From Trichoplax sp. H2 (lineage: Eukaryota): a DNA stretch of 64,000 nucleotides. The position numbers and the translations under genes are program-made. The stretch is taken from positions 1 to 64,000 of the forward strand of contig NOWV01000164.1 in assembly GCA_003344405.1 (NCBI GenBank), written 5' to 3'. Positions 5,161-51,291 of the stretch are shown piece after piece (position 1 is the stretch's first letter; each line of letters opens with the position of its first letter). The notes under the pieces were generated by a model. It did no database searches and was not told the origin of the DNA. It saw nothing but the letters and a program-made list of their open reading frames with translations.

Positions 5161-5840
5161 GCGCATTTCCTAAGTTGCTTTAGTTTATAGCAATGCCAGG
5201 ATGGTAATGTATTAAGATTGTGCTTGTAGCATATATTTAGACGACTCTATTACTGTAATTTCATTATTTATTTTTGGTGGCCGTGACGTATATTTATAGT
5301 TTAAAATATACAGTACAATAAGTACATTTTAGCTCAATTTCAAAGCTTGATGAGAGACAGGGTGGACCGGGGAGGCTGAAGTTTAGCATCATTTCTTCCT
5401 AAATATTTTGTAAATGTTACAACACATACCTTGAGTTAAAATGGCTTAATAATGCCTTATAAGCAGAAATGACTGCTTAAATGGAAATATTCTGTGGCAT
5501 GTAAAAATAAACAGCACCAAGAAAAATTTTCTGCAAAAAAGTTTAAGTTGGACCACCTGAGTGGATTATTTTCCATTATTGTTATTAAATAGTGCTATTG
5601 ATTGATGGATTTTAAATCTGATAGGAAGCATCGAAATTTTCGATAAGTAAAATTTCACTTATACTAGAGGGTGACGTTGCAAAATTTTCTGAAATGATCT
5701 CAATTAATTAAGTCAAAAGGACTTCCTACTATACGTGGAATCTGTCAAAATCAGTTAATGATTCTCATACATACCGTGATTTCAAGGAATGGCCAATCTT
5801 TTAATGATAGCTATTAATTCTTTTCTCACCTGGTAATATT

Positions 5841-8800
5841 ATGGAGGCCCCAAATTACGATACAGAACAATCTATCTATAATGAAATTGTGGGAAAAAAT
5901 GCTGAAAATTTGAAGCAATTTTTAACTCAATTTATTACAAGATTTTTAGAAAAGTTAGCTGTTTACTCAATGATAGTAACTGGGGATTTATCGTCAAATC
6001 CTGGAAAAAATTTCAAAAGCTTTCAAAAAATTGTCTTTGATATTATTAGGCCAGCAGCCTCATTATTAGGAACTGAAGTGTCCCTACCTATAAACATTGG
6101 GTTAACCTTAGTAGCGTATACGGCCATGGGAATAAAAAAGAAAATCCAAAAGCAAAAAGCAAAAAGAATTTTAAATACATTGCGTCCAAATAGCAATTTA
6201 ACAGTCTTACTAATATCGATACTTGCTTGCGATACATGTAGAATGTATGAACACCAGATAAATTTGCTTGGCAAAGAAGCTTCTTACGGCAATATAAAAA
6301 TCTTGGCAAACACAATAGTTAAACGAGTGTTAAATTTCATTTCATCGAATGCTGTCTCTGCCCAAAAAGAAACTGATGACACTGAAAACTCTTCTACTAA
6401 TTTAGAGGCAATGGCTAAACAATGGATATATGGTGTATTTGATGGAATATCTAAAACATCCTCCAAAGATGTAACTATTACCATAAATGGAAAACGACAA
6501 AAATTTGCTTGCGGGGATTTATTAACTCAGTTAGGAGTCACCCTAGGTGACATGAAACAAACTGCAAAAGTATACTACTTTGAAGATCAATATAAGGATT
6601 ACATTAAGTTCCTGGGACATCGACGATCATCGTTATTGTTAGATCCAAGGAATATTCGTAAGACTAATAGTGCCTATCTTCCGCTGAGCGAATATAGTGA
6701 AGAGAATTCACATTGTTTAAAATCTGATGAATTAAAAAACTTCTTTTACAACAGCAAAATTACTAGCCTGAAGGACTTTATTGAACTCAAACAATATGCT
6801 AAGAAGATACTTAAACTTGTTTTCTGTGACGATCCAACATACTGCATTAAAGAGTCTCTAAAATCCTTAAAAGATATGACTACAGAATTAGTTAGTAAGG
6901 ATGCCCTTCATAAAGAAATCGAGATAACATTAAAGCAAATGGAACAAAAGCTTCCAAAAGCCATTGAAGAAGCGATACAACTATTTCAAACGGAATTTTT
7001 GAGCATGGATAAACTACTTAGTGAGATGAATGAGCGCTTTAAAACTATCGAGTCCGCGACTAGGCAAATTCATAATACGGTGACCGAAAGCTTGGTTCTT
7101 GCGCAGGAACATCTAAGCTTAACTCGTAGTTTGCACGATCTTGTTGCCACTAATGAAACTCTTTCGGTCGCAAAAAATGGTTGGCGTACCAGTACGTAGG
7201 GAACTATAATTGTTAGTTAATGGATAGCAGTAGGAAATTAGAGAGCACACATACTTTCTTGTTACCGCCCATTTATCAATTTTATTACGTTAGATAATGC
7301 TCATCTGAACTACCTCCAAATATGTATTCAAGTATTTACTAACACGTAACGTAATGTAAATCGCACGATCAAACCTGAGTTGGCAAAATTGCTGGCAAAG
7401 ACCGTAGATAGATCAAAAGTTTAGATAATCTGGGTGTAGTAATGTTTATCAGATGCGCAACGGATCAATATTGGTTCACTCTAGAAATATTTGATAAAGC
7501 GCTAGTACTTCATATCTCGTTATCTGGTAACAATGAAGGCAAAGGTATCCTTGAACCAAAACTTTGTGACTGCATAGTTGTCCTTTTCATTGAGTATCTA
7601 GATCATTAATTGCTAGATCGTAACGTTATAAATTAGGTGCAATACAAAGCTCTCCCAGTAACAATTTCATATTTTTAACGTAATTACTTAGAATTACGGT
7701 AGTTCTATTGTAAGTGCGGCGATTTTAATAGAAAATTTATGCAATTTCCTATTCAGACCTTGTAACAAATTCTTTTATTCTACTTTAATAAGTTGTCAGT
7801 TTTTTTGCCCCTGAAGTTGATTCGTTTCTGTAAATGATAGTAATATTATTGATATTATGCTATACTGCTACTAAATGTATGAATTAATCAATTATAATTA
7901 CAGTTCGAACGCCCTACTTGCGATACTCTACTTTGCGAAAAATGTCTACTGTGTATATATTTTTTGAAATTTCTGTTGCTTGCACGACTTCCAAATGTAA
8001 TAATATAATCACAGAACAATATTATTTCTTTAACTTTGTTGTATTATAAGTCGACTTCCTAATTATACTAGCTATATCCATGCCTTTATGAGTACAAAGT
8101 ACTTTATAAGTAACTTATATTAAACTGTGATGCGTTGACTGACGATAAATCTTTACCTAACGGTAAAGGGTAAATTTATTAATAATTACATGTATCAACT
8201 GAGCTAAACCGCTACATTTAGTTACAGTTTCTTATTTTCATTAGTCTCATATTAATTTAACATTTGTATTTTAATAAAATGTAGTGCGACTCCAAGACAT
8301 GTTCAATATACCTGCATATCCCGTTTGCATCGTAAGAAAGGAGTTTATCGATAAGATCGAAAAAGCTTTACAATGTATTAATGAAAAGGATATTAACATA
8401 TTTGTTTATGGACGCGGTGGTAGTGGCAAAACCGTGGCAGTAAGCCAAACAGTCTTACAGTTTTTAAATTCAGGTGGCGATAAGTATGATGTGGTCTGGA
8501 TAAAAATTGGTGAGTGTTACCGTTTTAAAATGCCAGTAATTTTCAATAAATGCATAGCTAGCTGAGTATGCAGGAGTCAACGTAACTTGGAGAACGTACT
8601 TAGCCTCGATTGCCTATGTTTATAATTGCATAAGTTTCCCTTTAGATATCCAGCAATTTTATTACTCTACAACGTTAATACAGTTTCAGAAATAAAAGTG
8701 TGATAATGATCTTACGAAATTTTTATCACATACAATACAGGTGACGTTGATGACATCGAGCTATTTAATATCCTAAAAAAACTGGCCAACAAACTACAGT

Positions 8801-11800
8801 TACCTACAAATGTAAATTCCGAATGGAATCTAGAAGATCTATGCTCGGCGTTAAGAGTGGGTCTGAAGGCTTTTATACAAAGTAATAAGTGTGTATAAAT
8901 ATTTTAGTTGTCAGCAGTATTCGATACCCTTGTTTTAAAATATTCAGAAATGATTTGAATGCGGATTTCTGTACTAAAATGCATACTTGCTTATTCTACT
9001 TTGAATAAAGCGTGATAAATTTTGAAGTTACAGCTATAACTTTTAATTGATTTCAGATTCATCTGCTAGCCTCCTTAAAGTAATCTTCGTATTTGACGAT
9101 GTATGGGATGAACGATACCTTCGCTATTTCAGCTTCGCAGATAATAGCATAGTCACAACACGCTACAATATACAATCAATCATAAGCGTGAATCAAGTGG
9201 CAATAGCAGCGCCGGTCATTAAAAATAGTGCTACTTTCTCTTCGTAATTACTGCCTAATTAGCTAACAAATCAAAATAATACTTTTTCTTATAGAGCGAA
9301 TTTACTTTGGATGAAGCTATGCAAGTTATACAAACATACCAAAAGGATCTCTCACTGGAATTCATTCAAAACCAGAAACATGTTACTCAAGCCATTGAAA
9401 GCTGTCAGAGATTCCCTCTAGCAGTTGCACTAATGGGGGCTCAAAGAATTCATACCGATGAAGAGTGGAAAAATGTCATCAATAAAATACAAGGGAAGAA
9501 CGTAATTCTTAATCAATTTGGTGATTATGATTTTAATCTTTATGAAACTTTCCAACATAGCATTAATAAATTAACATCAAGAAATAGGGATTTATTCAAG
9601 AAATTAGGGGCTTTTAAAAAAGTTGAAATACCCTTAAATATGATAGCAAAAGTGTTTCATTTATCGCTCGATTCTACTATCAACGTTTTGCAGGAATTTC
9701 AAGAAAGAACCTTGATAAACAAGTGTGATATAAGGACTACTAATACTAGCGCGAGGTAATATGTATTTCGATGGTATCATGTTGTACAATTTGTCAATAT
9801 GATTACTGTAACTCTTTACCTTCCAAAATTCACCTATTTCTTGCTCTAGCATAAGTGGAAGTGAAATAATCTGATTTCATTTATAAAGAATTATAAATTT
9901 TTCTTCTCAGCCCTTATAAATTGACCTCAGACTAAAGAATTTGATTCTAAATTTTTAGCAGTTTACGGTATACTATTCATGATTTGTTGATCGATCATTT
10001 GCAAATACCTCCAGAGGAATATGGTGACAAATCAAAAGATAGATATTTAATGGAATTAAACGAACATCTCATAAGTTCCTGTTGTCCTCAAAATGATAAA
10101 AGTTGGTGTTCATTTGAAGATGACGGCTATTTCTACCAAAATATCGTTGATCATGCTATTTTGGCAAATAACTTTACCGTCTTGGAATCATTGTGTACAA
10201 GCATCGAGTGGCTACAAAACAAACTAATAGCTTGTAATTCAATCTCGGAATTTAAGGAAGATATTCGAAAGTGTTACGAGTATTTAAAGAACAATGATAG
10301 GGTTAATAGCATTGAAATATCGTACTTTTAGGATCGTAGTTCTGTCAAACTATTGCTAATTATCAAAATAACGAAATCACATCGTCTCTAAACTGATTTT
10401 ATCTCGTTCTTTAGAATTCTAGGAAACTTACAGAGTTGTATGGTTTACTTCAGAAATACAGCTCTTATTTACCGGCTCATAAAAGCGATTTTATTCAATT
10501 TGTTTTTTCCACTGTCGATGAAGATAATTGGATTTACAAAGCTACTTTAAAACTTGCGAGAAAAAAAATGAAACAAGAAGATAGTTTTTATGCTAAAGTT
10601 AGGTAAGAAAATCAAATTTAATTAAGATCTTTGGGTAGTATACTACAGTATAATACACAAAACTTTGAAATATTTTACAAAGATAATGTTGTGGTTAATT
10701 ATGCCTAACATGCTGATTTTCGTTAATAAATACGGTAGTTATTCGGAGAACCGAAGGTGTGAAGAGTGGGATAGGTCAATAAGGATAAGCTCTGATTTCC
10801 TCGACACTCTACCAAGATGTTCAAATTCGTTGAATGAAACTTTTAAGATCATATCCAGTGCAAATAACGATTCCTCGAATTCAAAAATAAACGTAATATA
10901 CACTATTTTCAATAATTAAAAGAATTTTGATTAAATATAATTATACAATATCAATTTAGCATCTTGTTAACTATATGCAAAATAATATCTGCTAAATTAG
11001 TCTAAATTAAATATCGTTAGGTGATAGATTATAAAAGCGAGGTGGAGGTCTTCAGTATCACGAAAGAAAATATGTTCATCTCTGAAGTTAGAATTTCTGC
11101 TGATGGAGCGATTGTGGCATTTTCTTATTGCAAAATAGCGGTAAATAATACCTAAGGGTAACAATAAATTAAGCAAAGTTTACTAAGACCTGTTACATTC
11201 TCCATCTGAGATACTTTCATTAACCTTTATATTTATAAATATTAAGATTGAGTCTTTGACTATGTTTATTCTGTGATTAAACTGACAAAAAGTGTAAAAG
11301 TTAATCGTCCATCTCAAACAGAGTGATAACCTATCATTGCGAAATGATATACGGTGGGAAGTCTGGAGTGTTAATCCGAAGTATAAAATTTTGTTTGTAA
11401 AAGCCAGCCGGCAAGTTGTAAAACTAGATTTTTTTGATCTAGCGTTTAATTGTACCAATAGTCATTTATTGGTTACTGTGACAGCCGATAGAAAGCAAAT
11501 ACAGGTTAGATATTTCCGTGAAAGATGATTAAAACATAAAATTTTATCGGTGTTATAAGAATATTATCTAATATCTGTATGTCAAGATAAAATCATGCTA
11601 AGTCTTACGATATCTCATAGCTTCCTTATGTGATTATTCTAGCTATGGAAAGTTTTTAAAGATAAATTACTACTATCCAAATCCTCAATAATACACGAAT
11701 ACGAAATCAATGGATGTTCCTTTGCAAATAATGGCCTTCGGTTAATTTCTTGGAGTAAAACATCTGATCATACGTTTTTACCGATGCGGTCGGATTGCTC

Positions 11801-14800
11801 AGCATGTGAAATTAAGGTAAGAAAAATGAAATTGGATGTTAATCGTAAACTGATAAAATGTTGTACATGTATGCTACACTCACATTAATAAAAATACTAT
11901 TGCAGTATTTAAATCAGTATAAGTTTTATTATCGCAGTTGTTAATTATAATTACTATTTGAAATCTTAATTACGGCCACTTTGACGCAATGCATTATTTG
12001 AATAGATTTGGAATGTATCAAACCTCTTGTTACCAAGATCTATTGTAGTTCTAGAAAACATCAAAGTCGAGAAGTACGAAAGTCCAAGCATCGATGCAGC
12101 AGGTTCACTAAGAAGTGTATTAGAGGTTAACGAAAGTATGCTGCTTCTGGACTACAGTATAGCATTGGGACTTCTGCTGGTAGATCTGTATGACAGTGTT
12201 TCTATTCTGAATTTTCGCGAAGTTTATAGAAATATTTTGAAAGCTGTAATTTATTCCGTCACAGTCTCATATGACGGCAAGTATTTCGCTGCGTTAACGT
12301 CACACAACGAAATTATAGTAAGCAATACAATAATAAAATAATAAAATGATCACTTCTCCAATTATGAACACAAATTAGATCTAACACGGTCTCTGAATCG
12401 AAACAATTGTAAAATAGTGTGTGCTGATCTTCACCTGTGTGCTAGCTAAATTTTTCTCATCCTTATAGGTTTTTACTACAGTTGACAACCTTGCCGTTCG
12501 ATATAAAACAATACAGTGTACTGGTCCAAATATTTATGCTACCTTTGTGATGAACCAGGCGCATATTTTAGCTTACAATTGTAATAGGAACAGTATTCAG
12601 CTTTATAAGATTGACACCAATCAAAACACAGAATGTTTTGCTAATAATGAAGATGTTACTATCTCTAATACTTTTGAAGAAGTTCTGCAAGTATCTGCTG
12701 AATTCGTAGCAGGGGTACCGACTTTGATTAAATTGTTGAAATTAAAGGACCAAACCCTTCTTTTAAAGGTGGCACTAGTCTCAGTATTATAAAAAATAAA
12801 TAATTTAAATCCTACCAAATTGAATTAGGACAGTTAAATATCAACATATCAATATGAAGATTCTCATGAAAATATCTTAATTTTAATGCAGGTAATGAAG
12901 GGAAATACTCTAATACCATTATCAGCCATCAATTTGGGAGATTTTTTTGAATATAGGAGATATCAATACTTCTATAAATGCTGCCTTTACTCAGACTTAA
13001 ATTCAGTTATAATTGTTGATCATAAAAAATGCCTCAGTGAATCATGCACTGCGAAGTACAAAGGAATTCATTGGCATTGCACGACTGTGGTAAGATTCAT
13101 ACCCCCAATAGCAGTATCAAAACATCTTTACTTATGCGATTTTTTCCCGACATTAATTTAACATTTTTCTTTTAATATCCAAAGCTATTATATCGGTGGA
13201 TATTAAAAATCTGTTACCTAATGTTTAATATTTGCTGCAACATTTCTGTAATAACTAATCAAAGCATGAATACAGTAATTTTTAAAGTACTATTCACAAG
13301 GCTTGGTTGCAAAGGCTATCATTAGTCTTTCTATCTTATTATTATAGATGTTTTTTTTTTTTTAATATTTATATCATATACGGTATACTGCATCTACTTC
13401 GGTCATTTCTATTTAACTTTGCTGATATGGTCATGTCTTTCAGAACAAAAATTTAGATAACGTAGCAGATACTGTTTGGCGTAACGTTCAAACATTTCCA
13501 GAATGTGTTCACCACTGTTTATCTAAGTATAGACGGTCGGATAAAAAACTGATATTCGTGAAATTGCTCCGAGAATCGGTGAGAGAGATGATCTTCGAAT
13601 TTATGCGTACATTCAATTTTAATACAATTGCACCATTATATTAATAACAATTATAACACTCGGAATAGAGAACATATCATTTAGGGATATTAGACTCTCT
13701 CACTGGTGACAATTTATTTAACTATCAAGATCCATCTGTCAGGATTCAGTATACATTTCTGCTATTCCATGATCAATACAATTTTGTTGCTTATTCTCAA
13801 ACCAAAGAAGATGAACACTTTGTAAAGGTCGGTAAATCAATTGGCATAAATCAATGCTTAATAGTTAAGTAAGCATTATCATAATTATTACATGGTGTGC
13901 GATATTTTTCGCCGAGTAACTCTGATACAAGCATGAAGCCAGTCTTGGCTTTTAGACAATGATTGATTGCTTATAGTAGTAAAACATAGTACGATAAATT
14001 CTAGCACGTTCTTAGGAAGATTTTATTTAATACGTTATTTTAAAACCAACTGATTTGGATATAAAGATTTACCATGTTGGCAGATTCCGTATATCTGTGA
14101 AAGAAAGCAATACTACTAAAATTCAGCAATCTGTAAAGTCTGTGTGCTTGGTTAGCATTTTTCATTCGGAAATTTCTATGACCGATATTGAGGATATAGA
14201 AAATAGATGTCATGACGAAGATCTGTTCGATGATGATTGGAAAGCCATTAAGGTTCTTTATCGTAACGTTAATTATTCTACCTTATTTTAAAGCCATTAG
14301 AGTGAATTTGATCCAGATGGTGGGGCTTAAAAAACAGCCTAACATTATGTATTAAAATTTAAAATATGCTGTTCTCTTTCGAACCAGCAGATAATATAAC
14401 ATCCTAATTTGCTGTGATTAAATATTCTTTCTAACAGTTGAGCTTTATATAATTTGAAAGCTACTATTTATCTTGAGCTATTTATGACTATATATTTCAT
14501 TAGCAGGTGCTTGCTAGTCATATTCACGCTCTAAACAATCTCAGTCCTACATAGCTGATAAAAACTATTTATTGGAAATCAATACAACAGGATCTGATGC
14601 CAAGGAAGAACGGGATTTATTTCATGATAAGAAAGGACCAAGAGTTTGCGGTCAGTAGATTATTTTTAAAAAAATAGTGCAGCTACCAGCCATCAATCTA
14701 CTAATAATCTCATATATGCAGATAATTGATTCAGACAACTACATGTGGGTGAAAGGTTATGGTGAAAGTGTTCTAAATATTGGTATTGGAATGTGGTCCT

Positions 14801-15027
14801 TGGAGAACGTATGGGGAAAAAAGTACATGTCGTACATTTTAGGCGATAGAATACATGTCTATAATAATACTTCACTTAAACTAATGCAAGAACTACAGTT
14901 CCTCTACGTAAGTGCTATAAAAACATTTGTTGCGAATGAAAATATGTCCATATTTATATGCGAAAATGATAAACATGAGTGCTGCATAGTTCAAAGAATT
15001 GGTCGCAGAATTTCTGATGAAACCTAA
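5841..15027 (+). CDS. Apaf-1-like STAND NTPase: unrecognised ~445-aa N-terminal domain + NB-ARC + divergent WD40/beta-propeller; ~19 exons, roughly 1,700 aa
   Basis: Exon 1 5841-~7179/7191 (phase 1) splices to 8285-8509 (Walker A GRGGSGKT), 8741-8881, 9057-9215 (Walker B VIFVFDDVW), 9295-9755 (CQRFPLAVALMG, GxP-like), 9959-10301 (IHDLL, MHD motif; EDDGYFYQNIVDH), then exons with xWxV propeller ends, to TAA at 15027. Frame-consistent GT-AG junctions were found throughout. Linkage of exon 1 is inferred from phase. Confidence 0.8.
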
Positions 15028-16989
15028 AATTGTAAATGTAGAGATCTAATAAATGATTAAAATATTCATTCAATTTATTAACTTCAGCTCGATAAATAGG
15101 TACGGTAGTTACTATCGTAATAAGTAGGCTTATCTAGTATAATTAAGTTTACTTTGAAAATTGCAAAATCGTGCGAAACATTTTGACTTAGGGTCTACAA
15201 GTATACCAGCTTAAGCTTCTAAAAAGTTAAGGATTTGATGTTCTTCATGGAATAAAACTTGCTTACCTTAATCTGACAACGGAAATATCGAAGATTTATA
15301 GCTTTTGTTAATTCTTCCGATCGTGGATCGCTACGCTAATTCTTGAATTGTTTTGAAAACAACAGCTAAAGGATTATCAGGAAAATACAATAATTCACCC
15401 ACAACAGCTTAAAGCCTTTCTTTGTACTCAGTTAAACCTCAATTTCGATGCGCTGATGATTTAAACAGAAAATTCATAAAAACTACAGGATGTTATGCAG
15501 TTAAAATAAGTTGCAGCTCTTTCAAAATAAAGCCAGCTAGGCTAGCAATCCTAAATATCATGTTAACTAAAAAGAAATATGATATATCTGTTATCAGTCA
15601 TAGAATAATAGACTCCTTTAGCTACAGCCTATATCTAAAGCCAAATACAATGAAATCAGAATGTACTCAAATCATTCCTTTACGTTACGACCATTAATCA
15701 GTTGATGAGCTTACTTTTCATGTACTGTACTGCAGGTGACTAGAAATGGTTTCACAGCTAAAGCATACGTTAGCAATTATTGAAATTATTAAAATGTAGA
15801 CATAAGAGCTGCAATATTTATAAATGAGCTGGACATCCGATGTCCAACTAGTATTTATAGAAAATAGGTAATATTTTACGATATGAGTAGAGTACTGCTT
15901 ATAGCGTAATAACAGTTTCTATCTATCTATAATTCAACGTTATTGAACACTGAATAAAAACTTCGCAACGCATGCAAAGTTACTTCGTTTAGTTTATAAT
16001 CTAACGTTTTGAGTATAGAGTTTACCCCGTTACAATTAAAATACAACACGTATTACGTATGACAAAGCCTGCTAGCATAGATATGAAACAACTGTTTTCC
16101 GATCGACTTTTAATTTCCGGGGCTTTTTGATGTAAGGGCAATGTACAGTAAGTAAAGGAAAAGTGAAATCGATTTGATCCGGGAAAAATGAAAGGTTGAC
16201 ATTGCCATTAATTTGTGAGCTTTCTTCTATAATACTGTACAGTACTATACTAGTACAAACTCCCGTCGCTTTGCTGACGGTTTACGATAATGTGCTCATT
16301 TAACAGATAGTATTACCATTTGATAGACCTGTCGGAGTAGAGAACTGAGTGCTTTTGGTAGGTAGTTGTAAACAATATTTCCCGATAAATAGCACTTATA
16401 CTTTCTATAAATTATGCTGCGATGTTAGAATTATAAGAACAGCGTAAATCGGGTTTATAATTTGTGATTGATAAGTCGATGAGTAGCGGTAGTGAGCTTC
16501 GTTACCATTTCAAGAATTATTACGCCATGCTTATAGTATAAAATGGATACTTTATTGCCGATTATAAGATGCGTACTGTGTGGTAGTTACTGCAGAGTAG
16601 CGTGTAAGCTATCGCGAAATAACGTGAGAAATACCGTGCTATCTTGGCTGCTAAAGTAGCTAACTATCTGAGATGTAGCTATTAGTTTTTATCGCCTTAG
16701 CGAGAACACATGCAGAGAACAAGATTGCAGAATTAGATATAACATATACCATGACAGTCTCTACAATAGCAAAGGCCTGCAAGAATGTAGCAAAGACGCG
16801 AGCTGCCTCGAGTATTTAAACATGACAATTACTATTGTGCATATGGGGAAAGGTTGATAAAGTTATCTACATTGCGAACAACTTAGAATGGCTATGAGGA
16901 TATGCTACAAGTACAATAAAATCTTAACCCTATACTAAATCGTTACTTCTAATTCTTTTCTGTCGGTCACTCTGTTAGCTGCCGTAAAC

Positions 16990-18060
16990 AATTTTAATTT
17001 CATCGTAAGCCTAATCTAGTCTTTTAATTTATTAGCTAATTTTGGGAGAATCTTTCGGTCTACCTTGAACGGGATCTGTTCTCTTATCGTGGAGATTTGA
17101 CTCCAATATTTGAAGGGAATAGCAGCGCAAGGATTAGAAATCTTTTATCTCATATAATCGACTTTGGCTTACATAATTTTTATAATTTTTTAGGATATCG
17201 AAATCTAATGTGTTCAATTCGTACTCTTGTGAATTTAATTTAGACTTATTGGATGCTTTGCAGCCATAGCAAGGATCAGCTAGCAATGATGAATTCCGAT
17301 AGCCCTAGATTCTTTCCTAAGCTGTAGAAGTTTCTTTTCCATTGAATGCTCTACCTTCACCTATTAAGCTGTTATTGGTGATAGGCAAATGACTTAACAA
17401 TGTAGTATAACTAATTTCGTGTTTTATTTCACGATATTCGATCAGTAATAGTTTTGACGCCCCTTCGAATACCCTATCGATAAATTTTTTGCCTAAGACT
17501 TCGATACCGATAAGGGAAGTTCCTTGGCCTTTACAGATTTGAATTTTTGATATGTAATTCAGAACTCTATTAATAACGGTATTGGCCAAATTTTGCAAAT
17601 TACTAACTGAATTCGTCTGTCCAAGCTTAATAATCTGGCATTCCAACATTCTGCACGCATCGTATACGATTAAGGTTAAAGACATTATTGGAAAAATTAC
17701 GTCATGATATGGTAGTAAAGTATTAGTAATTTCGCTGCTTTGTCCATTTCAGTTTTGCTTTTGACCTTGTAGGCGGCAGAGGATAACAGGCTTATCCAAT
17801 ATACACCGATGATGCAATTTCTAGTCCAACGAAAGAGACAGTCGGTTTGAGAAAGTCAGAAATAGTCATCTGGAAATGCTGCACAGACTTTTCTGCAGCT
17901 ACGTCTTCATCATCTCTGGAAATTACAGTATACGCGTGTAATGTCTTATTTTTCAATGAATTTTCTCACACGCATAGTCATAAAGTCTTTAAGAGTTTGG
18001 CTATGGATAGTATTAAAATTTTCGAAAGCTGGAACCTTTTTTTAAGTTATGGCCATAATC
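16990..18060 (-). pseudogene. Degraded paralogue of the N-terminal exon of the Apaf-1-like gene
   Basis: ORF 17685-17317 DACRMLECQIIKLG...QNLANTVINRVLNYIS...KFIDRVFEGASK matches DTCRMYEHQINLLG...KILANTIVKRVLNFIS...QWIYGVFDGISK. Flanks give QTLKDFMT..., FLKPTVSFVGLEI and GYRNSSLLADP (vs GHRRSSLLLDP), interrupted by stops and frameshifts. Confidence 0.85.
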
Positions 18061-19134
18061 TTGTTGTTCTGATATAATTACTGTTTCTCTAAATATCTTC
18101 CTACAAAAACAGTATCTTGCGTTACAGGAGGTATTATAACAAGAGTGGTAGGATTGCTCTCAGATTTCACTAAGAAGAATGCACGCTATTAGAAATTGAT
18201 GCGGAAGAAAATTGTCTAGTGAAAGACTAGAGCATTTCCGAAATCTATAGTACATATTCTTTATAACATAAGAAAAGGCATTATTACAAGAATGGTCACT
18301 ATAAGTTGCTTAGGTGTTCTTTATTGCAGTAAATTTTTTCACCATAAGCAGTTTAGGTGCTCATTATTATAGTGTATTTTTAAACTTAAAAATCTTATTT
18401 ACGAAGTAAAGACTTTGATTTGACCTACTGTGATACCAAAAGATTCAACTTGCCGTGCATGGAAGGCACCTGATGGGCAATAAGAAAAATAATTACAAGA
18501 TTCGCGATCGGCTGCTATGCTACATAAGACGACGTCAATACTAAGCATAATAAGCTTAATAAATTCTATATTTTCTTTCATTTAGATCTGTCAGTATAAT
18601 TGTACTTATACGCTTGTTTGTTTCTTTACACAGCAACGATTGATTTTTTCTGATCACAGGTTTATTCATTAATATTAGTATTTCATCGACCTCAGATATG
18701 AAAATGCCGTAAATTGTATTTTTGTTGCTTTAGTCATATTGTAGATCTTATGATAAAGAATTTATTGAACATCGTAGTCTACTGATAGAAAATTTCTCTA
18801 GAGCGAACATCTCGTTGAGAAACCAAAGCTTTTTGGGGGAATGATAATACCTTACGGAAGTATGAAACTTTGCCAACACAGCGCATAGAAGTAGAAAATA
18901 GTACAGAACATCCAGCAATGATTGAGGCTTCAGACAGATGGCAACATTTATTTGGAGAATTGTGAATTCAGTATTTGTACAGTACGCGAGTATTACGAGA
19001 GAGAGATTTGCCAGTATTCACTTAAAGCATTTTGTACAATAACATTTACATCATTGAAAATAATTCAATATTCTGATTATAATTTGAAAACAAGAATGGT
19101 AAATAACATGGTAAATCTATCGTACATGAGTGCC

Positions 19135-24925: not shown

Positions 24926-26279
24926 GGCTACCAAATGTCCAATTAGCGACTGTTTTCACTTTATGGACTGCTAGACTCTGAAATTCCTTTGGACGGACAG
25001 ACATTTGGCTTACTTTGGTCAATAAATTGTGTCCAACACTTCACTACGACAGTACTTTAGTATGGAGACAGTCGATTCGGAATGGACTGATTTTTTCTAA
25101 ATTAACAGTAAGTAATATTACAGTGCATTGTATTGCCTATTATTAAGGACTATTACTAAGCTCTGCTTAGTAACAGTCAGTTTAGATCATGAATGTTATT
25201 CAAATGAATGCGAATGATTTAGAGAACAGCCGCGGAAGATCTCAACTGAGTAGAACTATTTTTCGACATTTTCGGCCTTATTCGATATGAAAAGTCCGTC
25301 CATCCGAGGAAAGTTTCAGGTCTAAGTATTTTTTCTAGTAGCCCATAACTGTACTCAATGAACAGTATACTGTTGGAAGATAGAGTAAAGTTGTATAGTA
25401 AGCATTAAAAGTAGCCTGTATCGCTTGCTCGATCGACCTTAGGGAAGGTTTATCTGTCTGTCTGTAATGTCCGTATCGTATTGCGTTTCGTTACCTTGTT
25501 GCATTTCAGCGACTTCAAGACTACAGTACAGTACAGTTAAAAGAAAATTCTCCTCATTGGTGTACAGTTACAGTAGCGTTCAGTACAGTATAGTACAGTA
25601 CAGTAGTTCAAATGATCTACTGTACATTGTACTGTACTGAGTACAGTACACTGTAAAGAATATACTGTAGCACTGTACTGTACTGTACGCTATACAGAGG
25701 ACTGTATAATAACAGTGCTGTCGATGCTTTCAGTGCTATAGTATCCAGGAGAATGACCAGCAAAATGCGAAAGCTGTAACCTTTTTCTACTGGACACAGT
25801 CTTGTCATGGTCTTGTCCTTTACAGAATATAGTATGACAGTAGACACTTTCACTGCTACCGTATACAGTATAGGAGAATGAACAGGAAAATGCAAAACTA
25901 TGTCCTCTTTCTACCGTATTGTACTGGACTAGTCTTGTCGTGGTCTTGTCCTGTACAGATTATACTATAACAGTAGACGCTTTCACTGCTTCAGTACAGT
26001 ATGCAGTTCAGTATAGGAGAATGACCTAACCTGTGACCTGTTCTACTCAACTACTGCTGGCCACTGAAGAGGAAAACACCCACTTCTACAGTACCGTTTA
26101 AGATACCTTATCCTTCATCGTACTGGGTACAGTATTGGCTGATTTGTCTACAGTCTTTACACTGTGCAGGATTGTACTGTACACGGTAAGAAGAAAAGCA
26201 GCGATACTTTGCTGGTTGAAGTTTGTCGCGTGTGAGACTGTAGTGTGGACCTTTCTACCACTAGTACTGGCTGACAAAG
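24926..26279. promoter_or_regulatory. Head-to-head intergenic region (putative bidirectional promoter) NPRL3/MAGOH, with ACAGT/TACTG tracts and a ~130-140-bp duplication
   Basis: Divergent start codons 1.35 kb apart; pentamer tract ~25520-25710; repeated gtcttgtc(a/g)tggtcttgtcc...cagtagac.ctttcactgct...gtataggagaatga at ~25797 and ~25932. Confidence 0.6.
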
Positions 26280-26717
26280 ATGGCGGACTTTTATCTTCGA
26301 TATTATGTAGGCCATAAAGGGAAATTTGGCCATGAATTTCTTGAATTCGAATTTAGACCCAATGGACTGCTACGCTATGCCAACAATTCTAATTATAAGA
26401 ATGATACGATGATTCGTAAAGAAGTGTTTAGTCATCGCTCGGTGATGAACGAGTTGAAACGGATCGTGGAAGATAGCGAAGTCTTGCGCGAAGATGATTC
26501 CCTATGGCCGCCACCAGATCGTATTGGACGTCAAGAATTAGAAATTGTCAGTGGTGATGATCATATATGCTTTACAACCAGCAAAATTGGTTCACTCATT
26601 GATGTAAATAACTGCAAAGATCCTGATGGCTTACGCGGCTTTTACTATTTGGTTCAAGATCTCAAGTGTTTAGTCTTTTCACTCATTGGCCTTCACTTCA
26701 AAATTAAACCCATCTAA
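26280..26717 (+). CDS. MAGOH: Mago nashi, exon junction complex core protein; CDS has no intron
   Basis: 145-aa [30 protein letters not shown]...[13 protein letters not shown], the highly conserved Mago sequence. Confidence 0.99.
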
Positions 26718-31096: not shown

Positions 31097-34000
31097 TTAC
31101 AAAGCTACTGCTGTGAAGCTATTCCGATTGGGTTTAGCCATTTGTTTTCGATTTTTCTTCCGTGTCAATTCACATAACTGATGCATCCCTTCCTGAATGC
31201 CATTGCCATTTCGAGCACAAGTTGGTTGGACATGCCAAGGCCGATTGCTTGTCAATTCTTTCAAGGATAGCATTCTCGCTACGGTCATGGGTGATAACGC
31301 TCCAGGAATATCTTGCTTATTGGCTAAGATTAATATGGGTACATGTGCCATACCTGGACTTTTGCCAATGGCTAACAGTTCATGCTTGGCTTCTTCCATT
31401 CTTAATTCATCAGAGCTATCCACAACAAAGACGATGCCATCACAGTCGCGTAGGTAGGATTTCCAAAGTGGTCGTTGTTTGTCATTGCCACCAACATCCC
31501 AAATTTTCATTTTCTTTTTGCTGATGGTGACATTTTCAACATTAAAGCTGAGAGTCGGCTTTGTTTCGAAAAATTCGCCATATTTTAAACGATATAAAAT
31601 GGCCGTTTTGCCGGAGTTATCGAGTCCTATAGACATCAATGATTATCCAGTTAGATATACGACAAGTGACAATGGGCATCGCATCAATTGACAGTGCTGT
31701 ACCACTCTCTCTCCTACGGTCAATGTCGGGCATGAGATTGAAAATTTCATTTGGAAACAGAGACGGTACATTATATTGTCGTTTATCGACAAAACTTTCT
31801 ATCTACCTACTTACAGATGTAACGACAAGAGGTTTGCATGGGTTTAAACTCGTATAACCGGCTGTAGAAAAAAAATCTAGTACAAGTGTTGTAACAAGGC
31901 GATAATGGCTATGGATATTGCCAAGAGCATTTTTTCTTTTTTCAGCGACATTATTGCTCGACGAAAGCAATACAGTACTTTACCCTAGAATATGGCAGTC
32001 GATTTTCAGCCTTTTGTATTATCTCTCGCATGGACTATTGAGTCATCCATGCCTGTAGCAAAAGAAGAAGAAAACTAGCTGCCTAAAAGGATAGTCAGGA
32101 AGCATACTATAGTGGAATACAACGTATAGCCTCCGCAGTTCCTGGATACTGTCCTCCACTACGATGCAGTCCCTGGTACCACCAAGAAGAGCAAAGAATT
32201 TATTTGCCATGGAGTGGTACCCTCATTTTTCTGGCTAAACACTCATAGAATAAGGAGTTTCTCATAAAGTGACTCGATTGCTCTACAATCTCTTCTTGAC
32301 TCATATCGATGAATAGCAAAATTTTGCTCAAGCCATTGATCTATTTCATGCCCACTATCAAAGGGTTTATTAAAATTAAGTTAATTAAGATTCGAAAGTA
32401 ATTCAAAGCATGTTGTAAGAAATACACTAGACATGGAGAGTACTGTATTATACGAGGCGGACCTTCGACTGCAGCTAAAATTTTTTATTTCAATACATTG
32501 ATTACAATTAAGCCATTAAATTAACACAAAAGGAAAATAATAATGTCAGTCTTGTATGATTTTTACATAACTGTCAAGGTAATAACAAGAACTTGAATAC
32601 AGTAACATATTTTCACTTGTTTTGGCTACTGTTAGCGGGAGGGAGGGTAAATGGGGAATGAGTATTTTATGTTCTATTCGTATCAGAGAAATGCCATGGA
32701 AAACAAAAGCTTCTTTCACATCCTCTCTTACAGTAGAATCCATTCTTCCATTCCTTTACGGTATCAGCAGTTCAAGTCGCTTAATCCAGCTTGTAGCTGA
32801 TGGCACTACTAAGGCATAAAGTTTGGCAGAATGAGCAGGATTGGTAGTGAATCTCGACCTATTTCCTTTTTCATTCCCTTCTAACTATCCTTTGAGCACT
32901 TGTGAAACGCTGATAAATCGGTAATCGTTTCGTTGAAAGCGATTGCAATCAAGCAAGACAAAACTGTTTTGCCAAAACATGTATCCACATTTCTTGACGG
33001 TCAAGCAATCCCGTACGTCAAAGAAAAAGGGCAAAAAAAGGCAACTTGTAGTAAATTGCTATCCGTAGTGGACTACGGTAGTGATTCTCATGATTGAGAT
33101 TTGAGAATACCCTCTTTGTCCATCGCCACTAAAGTGATCGATGAGTCGATAATATTAATCGCTATAGAGTAATTAAAATTATCCGCGCTTTAACGCAATC
33201 CCTCCCCATTTATTGACAACTTTTTCCCTATATTGATATAAAATAATATTACCTTGTTTGACTATAAATCCATGCCTATTCTAAGATGGTTTTGATCGGT
33301 TGGCTCTCGATTCTACATACGCGTATCAACTATAAACAACCATAAAAGACTAGGGTTCAAGATCCAGGCTATTCAAGTCCAGTTTGACCAAAACATAAAG
33401 CGATTGCTGTACAAAATAAATTTGTATTTCCTTGCCACTGGAGAAGTGATGATTACATGATTCTATTCAGGGCAATAATGATTTTTTTTGCTCTTTGGAT
33501 CGTGTCCAACCTATAATTTAATGATAGTCTAGGGTAATTTCGCATGTCCTTTAACTACTTTCAGTCTTTTTAATCCATTTCCTACATACTTTATGACTCT
33601 TGTCATCTATGCTCCAAATGTATCAATGTACTGTCATGGTGCTGTATACGTGTACTCGTTTGAACAGTAACAAACTTCTTGAATACTACGCCGTGGAGAA
33701 CATTACAACTTTTCTTCCAAAATGGAAAATAAATGGGGGAGAGTAAGGTACATTTGTTCTCAAGTAGGAGAGGAGAGGTGGGAAGTTTAGCGATTCTTTG
33801 CTCTTTAAATTTGTTTTTCTCCAAGATAAACTACTGTCCATTTTTGGGCCATGAATCCACGGCAATGTTATTACCGGCGCATCGCTATAGAACGCCGGTA
33901 TGTCCCATGGAAATGTTGATCCATTTCCTTCGCCTCCATCATCAGTTATTCAACAGACATCAAGTTTATTGATGTCCTCGACACACAGTTTGAATCAAAT

Positions 34001-37510: not shown

Positions 37511-41971
<4,461 letters not shown>

Positions 41972-46430: not shown

Positions 46431-48422
46431 TATGCTTAAAGAAGAACAAACAGGAAGGTGTTAACTCCAGTTGAATCTATCGCTGTCAAATCTAATTCTA
46501 AATTAGGGGTATTGCCAAGTGTCGTTGAGAGATTGCTTGGTTTTACAGTAAGTTTTACTAGCACACTATGCAACTATCTTTTATTTACATTTTCTGCTAG
46601 AAATTATCGCTATGCAACAAATATCATAGATTAGGAACGCTTAGTTTTATAAGAAATAATTATTGATAAGGTGATGTTGAGTAAGGCTTCTTGATTTTAA
46701 ACAAATGTATTAAAGTCAAGTGGAAATCATAATTAGCTGGTGAACGACTAAAAAAAACTAGATCATTCTTTTATAAACCAAAATATTTGTACTGTAGTCG
46801 GCTGGAATTGCATTTCAAGAATTTATGGTAGATGGTTATCATGTACAAGCATTCTAGCCAATTTAATGATAGACACAAGCGTAGATGCAGTGAAGCTAAT
46901 TATACGCTTTTGCAACACTTCTGAAATCGATGGATTACTTTCCTTACTTCATCAAACTTGATGAACCTTGTTTTAACGCTACTCGTACATTGTAACATAA
47001 CCCAAAGTGATCTACATTAGCATTTTATTCAAACTAAAACCTAGACACAAAGTGTAGAGATGCATCTCATATTGGATTACATTGATAGCTATATTTGATA
47101 TCATTCGATTTCAAAGATTTGATACTCGTATTATTAGCCAGTTTGCTATCGCATGATAATAGATCGATGCGACTTGATATCCTGTCATTGTGAAGACACC
47201 GGATACCTTCAAATGATGATGTTGGACATCAATAGAAGATTAACGATATATTTTAGGTAGATTGAATTATACGGTAAAACATAGTGATGGTCTAAGGAAG
47301 CATCTTCTGTTTCATAACTTAAGTTTGATATTAGGCAACTTAGTTACAGTAAATAGATTAAACGAATTGTACAAGAACTGATGAGATGAGCTTAGAGGAT
47401 ATTAAAATTCACTTCTTTTGATCTCAGGATACATTAGATTAGGCTCTTCCCCTGATTCATTTTTTGCCCTACTATCCTTAAAGTCTGCTGAAAAAGCCTT
47501 TTTTTTTCCAAATTCTATCAGCTAGAGACAATTACTATGTGTGATAATTAGATTTAGATTAGATATACTTTTATAACAATGAATCCATTTCTAGACAATT
47601 GTTGCCTTTCTATTAAATAAGCAATCAAGCCATTAACGATAATGATTTAGCGATCAATCCTTGGACCAAGGATTATTTCAAAGGTTAAGGATAACTAAAA
47701 CCAAGGACGAACGCTAGTTTGATCTACGTGCAATCAGTACTGTACTATGCAATCGCGATATTTCTGTCCTTAACTACGTAACCAATATCGTCGACGACTT
47801 CAACTTAAAATGAAAGATGAATGCTAGTGAATGTTTGATAGTATATTAAGAGGAAATATCACCGAAACATCAGTTTAATAATATAAACTGTGGATGATAA
47901 CATAAATAAGTATGATGGTAACGTAAAGTAAGAGTTGCTCCAATTTTAAACGCAGGCAGCCTTCCCTTGAAGCAATCCGTGACAATTAGCAATCAACTTA
48001 GGGACTTGTCTAATCAAAACCAAAAGCAAAATATCATTTTAAAGCTTCAAGACAGTATAAAACTAAGCCTCAATGGACGATTTATTCACTCATTTATTGC
48101 GGTAATAGATTGTATGTTAATCATTTGTCACGTAACAGTGCAATATAGATTATTGATTCCGGCTTTGTGACGATTAATTTATTGATTTGATAGATTAGAT
48201 CTTGTCTTGCTCTTATTCTTCCTACTAGGCACGTGATTTTTTTTCACGCTATGGTTCAAATGGCGCTATAAGGCAATGATTGTTGTTTAATTGTCTTGTA
48301 AATTAGAATTGGGCTCATTGAGTTGGCAAAAAGGACGATTGGATCCGACTACAAATAAAAATTATTTGTCAACAATTTTCATAGCACTCTCTTGCCTCAT
48401 CTTACAGGAGGGCCTGAAAGCG

Positions 48423-51291
48423 ATGTTTAAAAGTAAATATTTACCGACAACTTCATCCAATTCATCCCGTGGTGGTATTTCTACAGCAATGGAGCAAAGG
48501 GATGAAATTGATGAAATGGAGGAATCAACCATGTACCGCTATGGGCTGGGTCCATTTCAACCTCAATGCCTTCAAATTCTTAATCATCGATGGTGGCTAA
48601 TTACAGTCATTTGCTTGTATATCATCTTTGCCGGAATGCTAATGACTGGATTTTCTGCGGTAACAGTAACATCATTAGAGAAACGCTATGAGTTGAGAAG
48701 CACTGAAACAGGAGCGCTGCCTTCCGCTGGCGAAATTGCCAGCGCCATCATTGGTATATTAGCAAGTTATTTCGCTGGTCGACATCATAAAGGAAGATAT
48801 TTAAGTGTAGGTGCGATCGTTTTGGCGTTAGGGGCTTTGATGTATTCATTGCCTCATTTCGTCACGGATCCATACACCGTGGTCAGTTCTTCCACCAATT
48901 ATAGCGATTTATGTCTAGAAACGCAATCCACACCATCCAATCTATGCGATAAAGAATTTCATCATGGCGGACAATCAAACATTCGCTATTTCTTTTACAT
49001 GTTTCTAGTAGCACAATTACTGATGGGAGCAGGGAATAATTTAATCTGGAATGTTGGTACGGCTTATATCGATGAAAATGTTCATCCCGTTTCTTCGCCG
49101 TTATACATCGCCGTTACTTATACCGTTAGTGTTGTCGGACCTGCTGCGGGTTATATTTTAGGAGGGATCTTTTTAAATCGGTACATTAATTGGCCAGAAG
49201 CACCACCACCAGGTACAGTTTCTTGCCTCATTGAATTGTTAAATGATCTGTTTAAGCCATCATTTATTTTATTACTTCATTATTAAGTTCAAAGACAATT
49301 TGCAATGATATTATGGAACTCTTTAAATCCCTATTGCTATATTAAGGTTTAACACCCTATGATGCACGATGGATTGGTGCTTGGTGGCTTTGTTTTATCG
49401 TCTCTGCTGCTTCTTTAGGATTCATTGCCGTACCTCTTTTTGGATTTCCACGAAAATTGCCGGGATATGAAAAGCACAAGCGGCTTCGCGAAGAGATGGC
49501 CAATAGTAATGGCCATCGTGATTATGGCATTAACCTGAAAGATTTTATTAAAGCTAGCCAAGAATTATTTCGAAATAAAGCGTTTGTCTTCCTAACATGC
49601 GCTGGAATATTAGAGTATCTCGCTACTATAGGAATCAGTTGGTTTTTTCCTAAAATTTTAGAGACACAATTTCGTTTACCTTCTTATGTAGCTAGCTTTA
49701 CTGTAGGCCTCATCACTGTACCAGGAGGGTGCGTCGGTATGATTTTGGTAAGCTAGATCAATTGTAATACTCCCCATAGAGATGCTCGAAAGATGAAATT
49801 GAGTGTAGTTCATTCAGTTTCGATAGCCACAATTATTTCAAATTAATTCGTGCTATTTTCACTTTTCCTTAGGGTGGTATGCTTGTAAGAATTTTTAGAA
49901 TGAATGGTCGTAAAGCAGCTAAGTTGGCTTGTATTCTTGGTTTTGTTGATTGTGCTCTATCAGCAGTTTTCTTACTTGGCTGTGATAGTCTTCCATTTGC
50001 TGGAGTTAATGCTCCATATACTAGTCATTCATTAACATCGTAAGTAAAAACTTGACTCTATCTTATGATCTATATTTCAATTTTTGATATTAACTTGTGT
50101 TAATAGAGTTCTCTTGACCGTAAATTAGGAATATTAGCTTCAATGAAGTCAATTTAACTGCGATTTGTAATTCAGGCTGTATGTGCAATAAGGTCGAGTA
50201 TAATGCTATTTGTGGATCAGATGGAAAAACTTATTACTCTCCATGTCATGCTGGTTGCAAGACAAGTTATTTTGATGCGGAAAATTTAACCTATGTAAGA
50301 CTTACTTACATAGAATTCTAGACGTGCAATAGTCTGTTCTCTAATCAGTATTACTAATATTGCAATAATTCATGAAATGGATATAAAGTTTAAATTGCTT
50401 TTTAGTTTCACATATAATTTTGCTAAATCAGGCTAGGTGTACGATAATTTCTATTTATGATATACGTACAGACTATTTCTCTTATCAGTGTCACTATCGT
50501 GCAATAATTTATTGAAAGGAAGCGGCATTAAAACTGCTTTTTAGTTCACTTGTGAATGACTAAATCGGAATAGGTTTATAATTTTTCATAAGTGAAAGCT
50601 ACTTATATCTGCTTCTTTTCACTCTATTAAAGGTTTATAGTAACTGTAGCTGTATCCCAAAGGCAAGCGATACCTATTCCGATTATGATGCTATTCAAGG
50701 ATCGTGCACATCAGATTGCCAAGAATTTAAACCTTTCGTTATAGGTATCAGCATTGCAATAGTTGCCGTTATGTCGAAAACTGTTCCCTCTACCGAAGCT
50801 TTACTACGGTATGTCAGGAAGACTGGAGTATGCTTATATTATTCAATGCTCTTGAAATGATTTGATAAAAAAAATAAGTGCGCACTGCGTCAAAGATACA
50901 ATTGATGTGCTAAATTAATAACATAATAATTGATGATAGATCTGTACCTGAAAATCAACGAGTTTATGCTTTGGGCGTCAGTTCAGCTATGATTCGTTTG
51001 GCTGGAAATTTACCCGGACCAATCTTAATTGGAGCATTTATCGATTATTCATGTTTACTCTGGGGCAACGAATGCGATTCCTCGTCGACTTGTTGGTTTT
51101 ATGACAGTAGAAAGATGGGAATGTACCTTTATATATCCCTAATTATGATCAAGCTTCTGTCTACTTTCTTATTTATTCTAAGTTGGAGGTATTATAGAAA
51201 AGATCAAGGTCTTTCTTCTACAGGAAGTACCCATTTACTCGATTTTAGCCATAAGAGTGAAGATATCACTCGAGGTAAGGATGCCATTTAA
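48423..51291 (+). CDS. Organic anion transporting polypeptide (SLCO/OATP family, SLCO4/5-like), ~6 coding exons
   Basis: SLEKRYELRSTETG; AYIDENV; OATP signature DARWIGAWWL (~49361); Kazal-like CNSGCMC...ICGSDGKTYYSPCHAGC; PGPILIGAFIDYSCLLW. Exons ~48423-49212, 49347-49747, 49873-50040, 50129-50293, 50633-50808, 50940-51291. Start codon uncertain (alternative 48489). Confidence 0.93.

Follow-up and report, generated by a model that had tools for sequence, protein, structure and literature searches.

The 64,000-nucleotide stretch of Trichoplax sp. H2 DNA analysed here (contig NOWV01000164.1, positions 1 to 64,000 of the forward strand; referred to below as the window) contains a gene for an Apaf-1-like receptor of the STAND class (signal transduction ATPases with numerous domains). 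Its first coding exon, which is spliced to an NB-ARC exon, encodes a domain for which we recognised no known family or fold. Read from its sequence, the protein has the order N-domain (~315 amino acids, aa), coiled-coil-like stalk (~115 aa), NB-ARC, APAF1_C and a C-terminus that is probably beta-propeller-like, and the N-domain occupies the position that CARD holds in Apaf-1. Relatives of the N-domain are found on further NB-ARC proteins and on Death-domain proteins. The gene had been picked out in a prediction made from the DNA letters alone (the original prediction), which placed it in an early-branching animal; the host is indeed one, Trichoplax sp. H2.

Results

Splicing joins exon 1 and the NB-ARC exon

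The frame that holds exon 1 runs from stop to stop over 5811-7199 on the forward strand, with an in-frame stop directly upstream of 5811, a first ATG at 5841 and, after 452 codons, a TAG at 7197-7199. At 462 aa it is the longest open reading frame (ORF) in the six frames of the window (the runner-up has 331 aa), and the chance of finding 462 open codons at the window's base composition (35% G+C) is about 1e-15. Residues 1-450 of the exon 1 product are 100% identical to a public protein, RDD38720.1 (1608 aa; P0002 in our list). When this protein is threaded on the window, 17 exons result, the first of 1351 nt and the other 16 of 120-461 nt; the contrast drawn in the original prediction, between a single 1.35-kb exon and others of ~100-460 nt, therefore holds for the public model. 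The claim that exon 1 is compatible in phase with the exon at 8285 also agrees with the sequence, as there are GT donors after 7179 and after 7191 and an AG acceptor ahead of 8285, and either donor leaves one base, which is the phase of the NB-ARC frame at 8285.

Contigs of four coded sequencing runs were aligned to 5400-18400. Run X1 contributes 15 joints among those listed and 5 further ones besides. Since only spliced molecules yield GT..AG joints, X1 must hold such molecules. One X1 contig joins 7191 to 8285 with GT..AG ends, at a depth of 42.4; the shorter of its two sides has 30 letters. Moreover, a 1551-nt X1 contig covers 5641-7191 and ends exactly at donor 7191, while a 3251-nt X1 contig begins exactly at 8285 and continues across the next introns. 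The public model RDD38720.1 uses the same donor and the same joint, and at least 13 of its 16 introns match X1 joints (among the 15 joints listed). For exon 1, X2 (from a second study) provides 233 nt, and for exons 3-5 a spliced piece; there is no exon 1 junction among its contigs. The splice between exon 1 and the exon at 8285, which had been proposed with either 7179 or 7191 as its donor, is thus seen in X1 from 7191, both as a joint and as contigs that break exactly at the two sites. We are highly confident that exon 1 codes for part of the STAND protein.

Within intron 1, the X1 depth is 3.2 in the bin 7570-8003. If the intron is retained, as it may be in a minor unspliced form, two further codons are read before the stop, giving a 452-aa product that contains the N-domain only. 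Two mismatches were noted between the window and the RNA contigs. Position 6883 is G in contigs of X1 and X2 and C in the window, which changes T348 to R (T348R), and position 8424 is C in X1 and T in the window, a synonymous change. Differences between strains or alleles, or else errors in the assembly, account for them.

The downstream exons encode an Apaf-1-like protein

Two Pfam domains are matched above their cut-offs in the public protein: NB-ARC (PF00931; 67.2 bits versus a cut-off of 23.5, E 1.8e-18, residues 470-696) and APAF1_C (PF17908; 39 bits versus 22.8, E 9.5e-10, residues 831-944). The P-loop is encoded in the exon at 8285, and the five nucleotide-binding motifs, which we take to be Walker A, Walker B, TTR, the GxP-like FPLA and the MHD-like IHD, are intact (Table 1). 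The description of the gene as an Apaf-1-like STAND protein was hence correct. In the C-terminal ~770 aa, the beta-propeller matches (E 7.6e-4 and 1e-3) both lie below the Pfam cut-offs; by its sequence, this region probably consists of diverged beta-propellers.

The public model ends with an exon at 14067-14291 and misses the X1 joint 14252->14591. An X1 contig with 61 letters ahead of 14721 fits exons at 14591-14650 and 14722-15027, from which we infer a joint 14650->14722, outside the joints listed. The gene probably ends with exons at 14067-14252, 14591-14650 and 14722-15027, and not with the public 14067-14291. This revision gives a protein of 1717 aa; its end is similar to the C-terminus of P0006 (TRIADDRAFT_62115), to which 14569-15000 is homologous.

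Table 1. Features of the receptor gene and of other parts of the window
Feature	Position	Strand	Basis or remark
5' untranslated leader	5641-5840	+	1551-nt X1 contig matches 5641-7191 from its first letter
Exon 1, coding part	5841-7191	+	1351 nt; residues 1-450 and base 1 of codon 451
Predicted globular core of the N-domain, residues ~15-330	5883-6830	+	AF2; conserved in 16 relatives
Proposed hydrophobic hairpin and basic patch, residues 68-109	6042-6167	+	AF2 pLDDT ~50
Most conserved motif, C130-D131-x2-R134-x2-E137-x-Q139-I140	6228-6257	+	One helix, pLDDT 87-90
Conserved loop motif, G259-x-R261-x2-S264	6615-6632	+	Alignment column counts
Heptad-periodic long helix or coiled-coil-like linker, residues 332-446	6834-7178	+	
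Intron 1	7192-8284	+	1093 nt, GT..AG; retention leads to a stop at TAG 7197-7199
Exons 2-5, NB-ARC (residues 470-696, 8341-9507)	8285-9755	+	Pfam; introns seen in X1
Walker A, GRGGSGKT, residue 493	8410-8433	+	Motif reading
Walker B, VIFVFDDVW, residue 582	9083-9109	+	Motif reading
TTR, residue 606	9155-9163	+	Motif reading
FPLA (GxP-like), residue 665	9412-9423	+	Motif reading
Exons 6-7, IHD and APAF1_C helical domain (residues 831-944, 10113-10567)	9959-10602	+	Pfam
IHD (MHD-like), residue 785	9975-9983	+	Motif reading
Exons 8 onward, C-terminal region of ~770 aa	10739-15027	+	X1 joints and frame reconstruction
Pseudogenised copy of the N-domain exon	17101-18005	-	tblastn; tail to tail with the gene
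Mago nashi frame	26265-26714	+	E 2.5e-73
Arf-family GTPase exon	31100-31642	-	E 1.1e-54
Weak AI-2E-transporter-like exon	38270-38677	-	
Four OATP transporter exons	48291-51288	+	

No CARD or other known domain is recognised in the N-terminus

In the 452-aa exon 1 product, CARD, Death, DED, PYRIN and TIR give no Pfam match at E<=1. The best Pfam match of this product is ATG17_like (E 0.0026, 17.8 bits versus a cut-off of 43), and it falls on the coiled tail. When 17 members of the N-domain family were compared with Pfam, no family was matched by more than one of them (among the 25 families listed, of 31), and the N-domain has no Pfam sequence-family match to the death folds, TIR, Rx_N/CC, RPW8, HeLo or the MLKL N-terminal domain. 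PADLOC returned nothing recurrent, only three single-member matches at E>=0.022. The best PDB match was Borealin in the single-sequence search (E 0.12, again on the coiled tail) and FliS in the profile search (E 0.025). With the predicted structure, Foldseek gave no match to PDB at E<=0.001 (best E 0.5) and a best E of 0.036 to BFVD. In VIA-align, the long helix took up the match lists and left the core of the N-domain scarcely compared, and ESM Atlas gave no usable match for the whole protein. The statement of the original prediction that the N-terminal ~450 aa hold no recognised CARD, DD, DED or TIR thus stands through Pfam, PADLOC, PDB and Foldseek, and Pfam and Foldseek were among the checks it had named for the N-domain.

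Two candidate assignments were dropped. A potyvirus P3 cluster, obtained from ESM Atlas with residues 15-335, has a best score of 0.78, which is within the noise range. The HEPN motif, which we take to have the pattern R-x4-6-H, was considered for the conserved helix; the pattern there is instead R-x3-H, with Q in place of the H in subfamily B (see below).

A CARD on a separate exon was also sought among the short ORFs nearby. Six ORFs of 30-65 aa in intron 1 have no Pfam match at E<=0.1, nor do 15 of the 16 forward-strand ORFs of at least 40 aa upstream of 5841; the 16th (1-252, scanned at E<=0.001) shows only a sub-threshold Trypan_PARP. Given the splice 7191->8285, there is no room for an extra exon in that transcript.

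The N-domain family includes NB-ARC and Death-domain proteins

Among 1.84 billion representative proteins, searched exhaustively with phmmer, 16 match at E<=1e-3 and 8 of these also at E<=1e-10; the top match is P0002. All relatives with a species label come from Trichoplax adhaerens or Trichoplax sp. H2, and the rest are ENA/Logan records that carry no such label. The similarity spans residues ~20-330 and includes both the C-D-x2-R-x2-E-x-Q helix and the G-x-R-x2-S loop. Word-indexed profile searches returned known members and two plant NB-ARC proteins only (alignment A1, NB-ARC columns included) or P0016 and P0023 only (alignment A2). As far as these sequences go, the family is placozoan-only and its fold is unrecognised.

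Two subfamilies, A and B, share 12-23% identity. Subfamily A comprises the gene in the window, P0004, P0005 and P0006, and the last two are fused to NB-ARC. In subfamily B, P0015 is fused to NB-ARC, while P0016, P0019 and P0023 are fused to a Death domain (Pfam E 6.1e-11 for P0019; 1.2e-4, at the cut-off, for P0016 and P0023). The order N-domain then NB-ARC therefore recurs in three paralogues, P0005, P0006 and P0015. The N-domain of P0015 is 46-53% identical to those of P0016 and P0010, and P0010 falls into one 90% cluster with the Death-fused P0019. P0015 (TRIADDRAFT_61449, NB-ARC) and P0016 (TRIADDRAFT_61448, Death) bear consecutive tags on one scaffold of 894,902 bp; the identity between their N-domains is 46%.

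P0010 (TRIADDRAFT_59578, 551 aa) is without the Death domain of its H2 counterpart P0019 (RDD36911.1, 656 aa, named 'Ankyrin-3'). The TRIADDRAFT_59578 model is probably truncated, and the name of RDD36911.1 is probably misleading. A stand-alone N-domain (P0003, P0007, P0008 and P0018) was not counted as a third architecture: these sequences lie on short contigs and may be ORFs of unspliced exons.

Predicted fold and conserved residues of the N-domain

AlphaFold2 (AF2), run with an 18-sequence alignment, modelled the exon 1 product with a mean predicted local distance difference test (pLDDT) of 64.3 and a predicted template modelling score of 0.60; the single-sequence model (pLDDT 39.6) was unusable. 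The predicted layout begins with helices (residues 9-208) and a small beta-meander (210-245); after a loop of low confidence (259-294), further helices (295-369) lead up to one long helix (373-446). The pLDDT is 75-92 at residues 100-170 (87-92 at 120-170) and ~50 at residues 50-100. Across residues 330-450, L, I, V, M and F make up 53% of the a/d positions in the best register versus 30% overall. By prediction, exon 1 encodes some 315 aa of mostly helical domain and then a helix of ~115 aa with heptad periodicity, in agreement with the helical protein and coiled-coil-like end that had been foreseen. A two-copy complex prediction of the 452-aa product, in which the family alignment was unused and which was run without controls, scored 0.01 and is no evidence either way.

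Column counts were taken on alignment A2. In the most conserved helix, C130, R134 and E137 are each kept in 13/14, D131 in 12/14 and Q139 in 14/14; further on, G259, R261 and S305 are kept in 11/12 and S264 in 12/12. Hydrophobic positions of the helices aside, conservation is highest in polar columns, and it extends across subfamilies that share the low identity given above.

The original prediction had singled out a hydrophobic hairpin and a basic patch in this domain. What holds of it is that residues 68-97 are moderately hydrophobic and are followed by the basic stretch KKKIQKQKAKR, and that a basic cluster after the hydrophobic stretch recurs in both subfamilies. The Kyte-Doolittle peak, on the other hand, is 1.55 at residue 89 (19-residue window), which is sub-threshold, and in subfamily B the maxima of the same analysis are 1.0-1.3, so that the hydrophobic character is absent there. 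Together with the lack of a fold match to any pore-former, these values leave the membrane-targeting or pore-forming reading unsupported, though not refuted.

A degenerate copy of the exon and the neighbouring genes

The copy of the N-domain exon at 17101-18005 has 30% identity over residues 103-325 and two upstream pieces in other frames; it contains 4 in-frame stops and is spread over three frames. Its closest family match is P0006 (35%). In X1 it is covered by one form identical to the window and one variant form. A 1536-nt RNA contig of run X4 (organism C) spans 16600-18127; it shows 87 differences and contains 28 gaps, some with lengths that are multiples of three, and a related intact, expressed copy may exist elsewhere. 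At 16250-16683, contig depths of 954, 1746 and 536 in three runs and many breaks at 16247-16249 and 16337 suggest a repeated, probably mobile, element. Rfam gave no match at E<=0.01 in 15000-19000. Within the window, the receptor gene has no NB-ARC cluster around it, and its neighbours are ordinary genes.

Discussion

The gene shares with Apaf-1, CED-4 and Dark an NB-ARC with intact motifs, APAF1_C and, probably, a beta-propeller-like C-terminus, and its public annotation is Apaf-1; it differs from them in having an unrelated domain and stalk of ~450 aa instead of a CARD. Since there is no CARD, direct recruitment of a caspase through CARD-CARD contact is not expected.

Much of the setting is already known, namely the fused gene model RDD38720.1, the placozoan expansion of Apaf-1-like genes and the existence of CARD-less ones. 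PMC6321704 describes this expansion and counts 39 NB-ARC genes in Trichoplax sp. H2; the domains it names are CARD, death-like domains (DLD) or Death effector domains, with some models lacking CARD/DLD or WD40, and in its account placozoans have Apaf-1-like genes by the dozen and no clear caspase-9. PMC10959488 sets Apaf-1 apart from CARD-less "Apaf-1-like" genes with "unconventional domains", and PMC8635375 counts 68 NB-ARC genes in T. adhaerens. The gene in the window is one of many placozoan NB-ARC paralogues, and the CARD-less Apaf-1-like genes of non-bilaterians are among its closest known counterparts. We found no description of the N-domain or its family in literature searches or in the text consulted of these three papers, whose supplementary tables may list the gene, and a literature search with six accession numbers led to no paper. 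What is new is thus not the gene model, the expansion or the CARD-less genes; the N-domain family and its shuffling between NB-ARC and Death domains appear undescribed.

The N-terminal position of STAND proteins is typically that of the output. By analogy with established STAND behaviour, the C-terminal region would sense a signal, the NB-ARC module would then exchange nucleotide and oligomerise, the stalks would bundle the N-domains together, and the clustered N-domains would act as a proximity-activated output module. We infer the clustering from that behaviour. As both NB-ARC and Death domains are oligomerising inputs, a domain-plus-stalk unit shared between them is most simply read as such an output. 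Its activity would lie in the polar cluster of C130, D131, R134, E137, Q139, G259, R261, S264 and S305, as a catalytic or a partner- or ligand-binding site, and not in a membrane hairpin. We put this forward tentatively, as a possibility that falls short of being probable.

Several points weigh against it. The case for the function of the N-domain is drawn from its sequence, its splicing and its predicted fold, and no family or fold match in Pfam, PDB, Foldseek, PADLOC, VIA-align or ESM Atlas hints at an activity. The polar residues are grouped as a cluster by alignment columns and not by coordinates, and every column of the alignment varies in at least one row, a weak point for a catalytic site. 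As for the splice, the shorter side of the junction contig is one letter below the 31-letter bridging threshold; X1 is labelled RNA by guess and not by its record, yet its many GT..AG joints come from spliced molecules; and the public gene model may share X1's RNA data and hence may lack independence.

A different role that the same domain arrangement brings to mind is that of a homotypic adaptor, in which the clustered N-domain recruits N-domain-Death proteins (RDD36911.1-like or TrispH2_003548-like) and thereby reaches death-fold networks and caspases, much as PYD does between NLRP3 and ASC. P0016, P0019 and P0023 have the layout of ASC, FADD, MyD88 and CRADD, in that one protein bridges two modules, and two-domain adaptors are usual in animal death signalling. 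The presence of the N-domain on both NB-ARC and Death-domain proteins speaks for this role, as do the consecutively tagged TRIADDRAFT_61448 and TRIADDRAFT_61449, with their 46% identical N-domains on one scaffold. However, the Death fusions are seen in subfamily B only, which is 17-23% identical to the subfamily A domain of this gene. Moreover, 315 aa with conserved polar residues is far more than the ~90-150 aa that we take to be the size of known homotypic adaptors, and Pfam recognises no death fold in the N-domain. We regard it as rather unlikely. The direct executioner that the original prediction had in mind, a caspase-independent immune or cell-death receptor whose clustered hairpins (residues 68-97) would insert into a membrane with help from the basic patch and permeabilise it, is quite unlikely in our estimate. 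It would resemble the plant CC-NLR resistosomes, the fungal HeLo and HeLo-like NLRs and MLKL, where a helical N-terminal module sits on or downstream of an oligomerising scaffold, with helices between. The moderately hydrophobic helix-break-helix ahead of KKKIQKQKAKR, the AF2 helices at 55-75 and 78-113, the basic cluster at the same place in both subfamilies and an N-terminal position on an NB-ARC protein, presumably that of the pore-forming CC and HeLo domains, are all consistent with it. Against these stand the sub-threshold hydropathy, the absence of the hydrophobic segment from subfamily B and the polar nature of the family-wide conserved residues; the N-domain is also about twice as large as those modules and has no sequence-family match to them.

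The N-terminus could instead regulate or localise the receptor, as an organelle or partner tether or by auto-inhibition, with the output passing through another protein. The basic patch would suit this, as would R261-x-x-S264, which resembles what we take to be a basophilic-kinase site, and no effector-type family is recognised in the domain; but an N-terminal output is typical of STAND proteins, and the recurrence of the module on Death-domain proteins points to a function of its own. We consider such a role doubtful. That exon 1 gives rise, in whole or in part, to a separate product, made when an unspliced transcript stops at TAG 7197-7199, seems highly improbable. The ORF does close 6 nt past the donor, the X1 intron depth is 3.2, and two relatives that consist of an ORF only, P0003 (445 aa) and P0018 (447 aa), stop close to this point in the alignment. 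Nevertheless, the spliced joint has a depth of 42.4 and contigs break exactly at the splice sites, while the intron signal may be pre-mRNA or DNA. P0003 and P0018 lie on short contigs (6.5 and 6.2 kb), on which an ORF caller stops in the intron anyway, and four gene models join the N-domain to NB-ARC.

The boldest form of the argument makes the N-domain a new animal death executioner that an Apaf-1-like oligomer, or a Death-domain complex in the paralogues, brings together and that kills without caspases through membrane attack or an enzymatic polar cluster. We think this very doubtful. If true, placozoans would have a resistosome-like, CARD-free death pathway, with one 1.35-kb exon shuffled between NB-ARC and Death-domain scaffolds.

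In all parts of life, STAND receptors exchange their N-terminal output domains, and CARD, PYD, TIR, plant CC and HeLo have each revealed a mechanism of signalling or killing. Here, one domain-plus-stalk unit, a single exon in the gene of the window, is found on an Apaf-1-like NB-ARC or on a Death domain in a very early-branching animal lineage. The activity of the N-domain would show what the expanded placozoan receptors trigger, and whether animal relatives of Apaf-1 once had outputs other than the recruitment of caspases.

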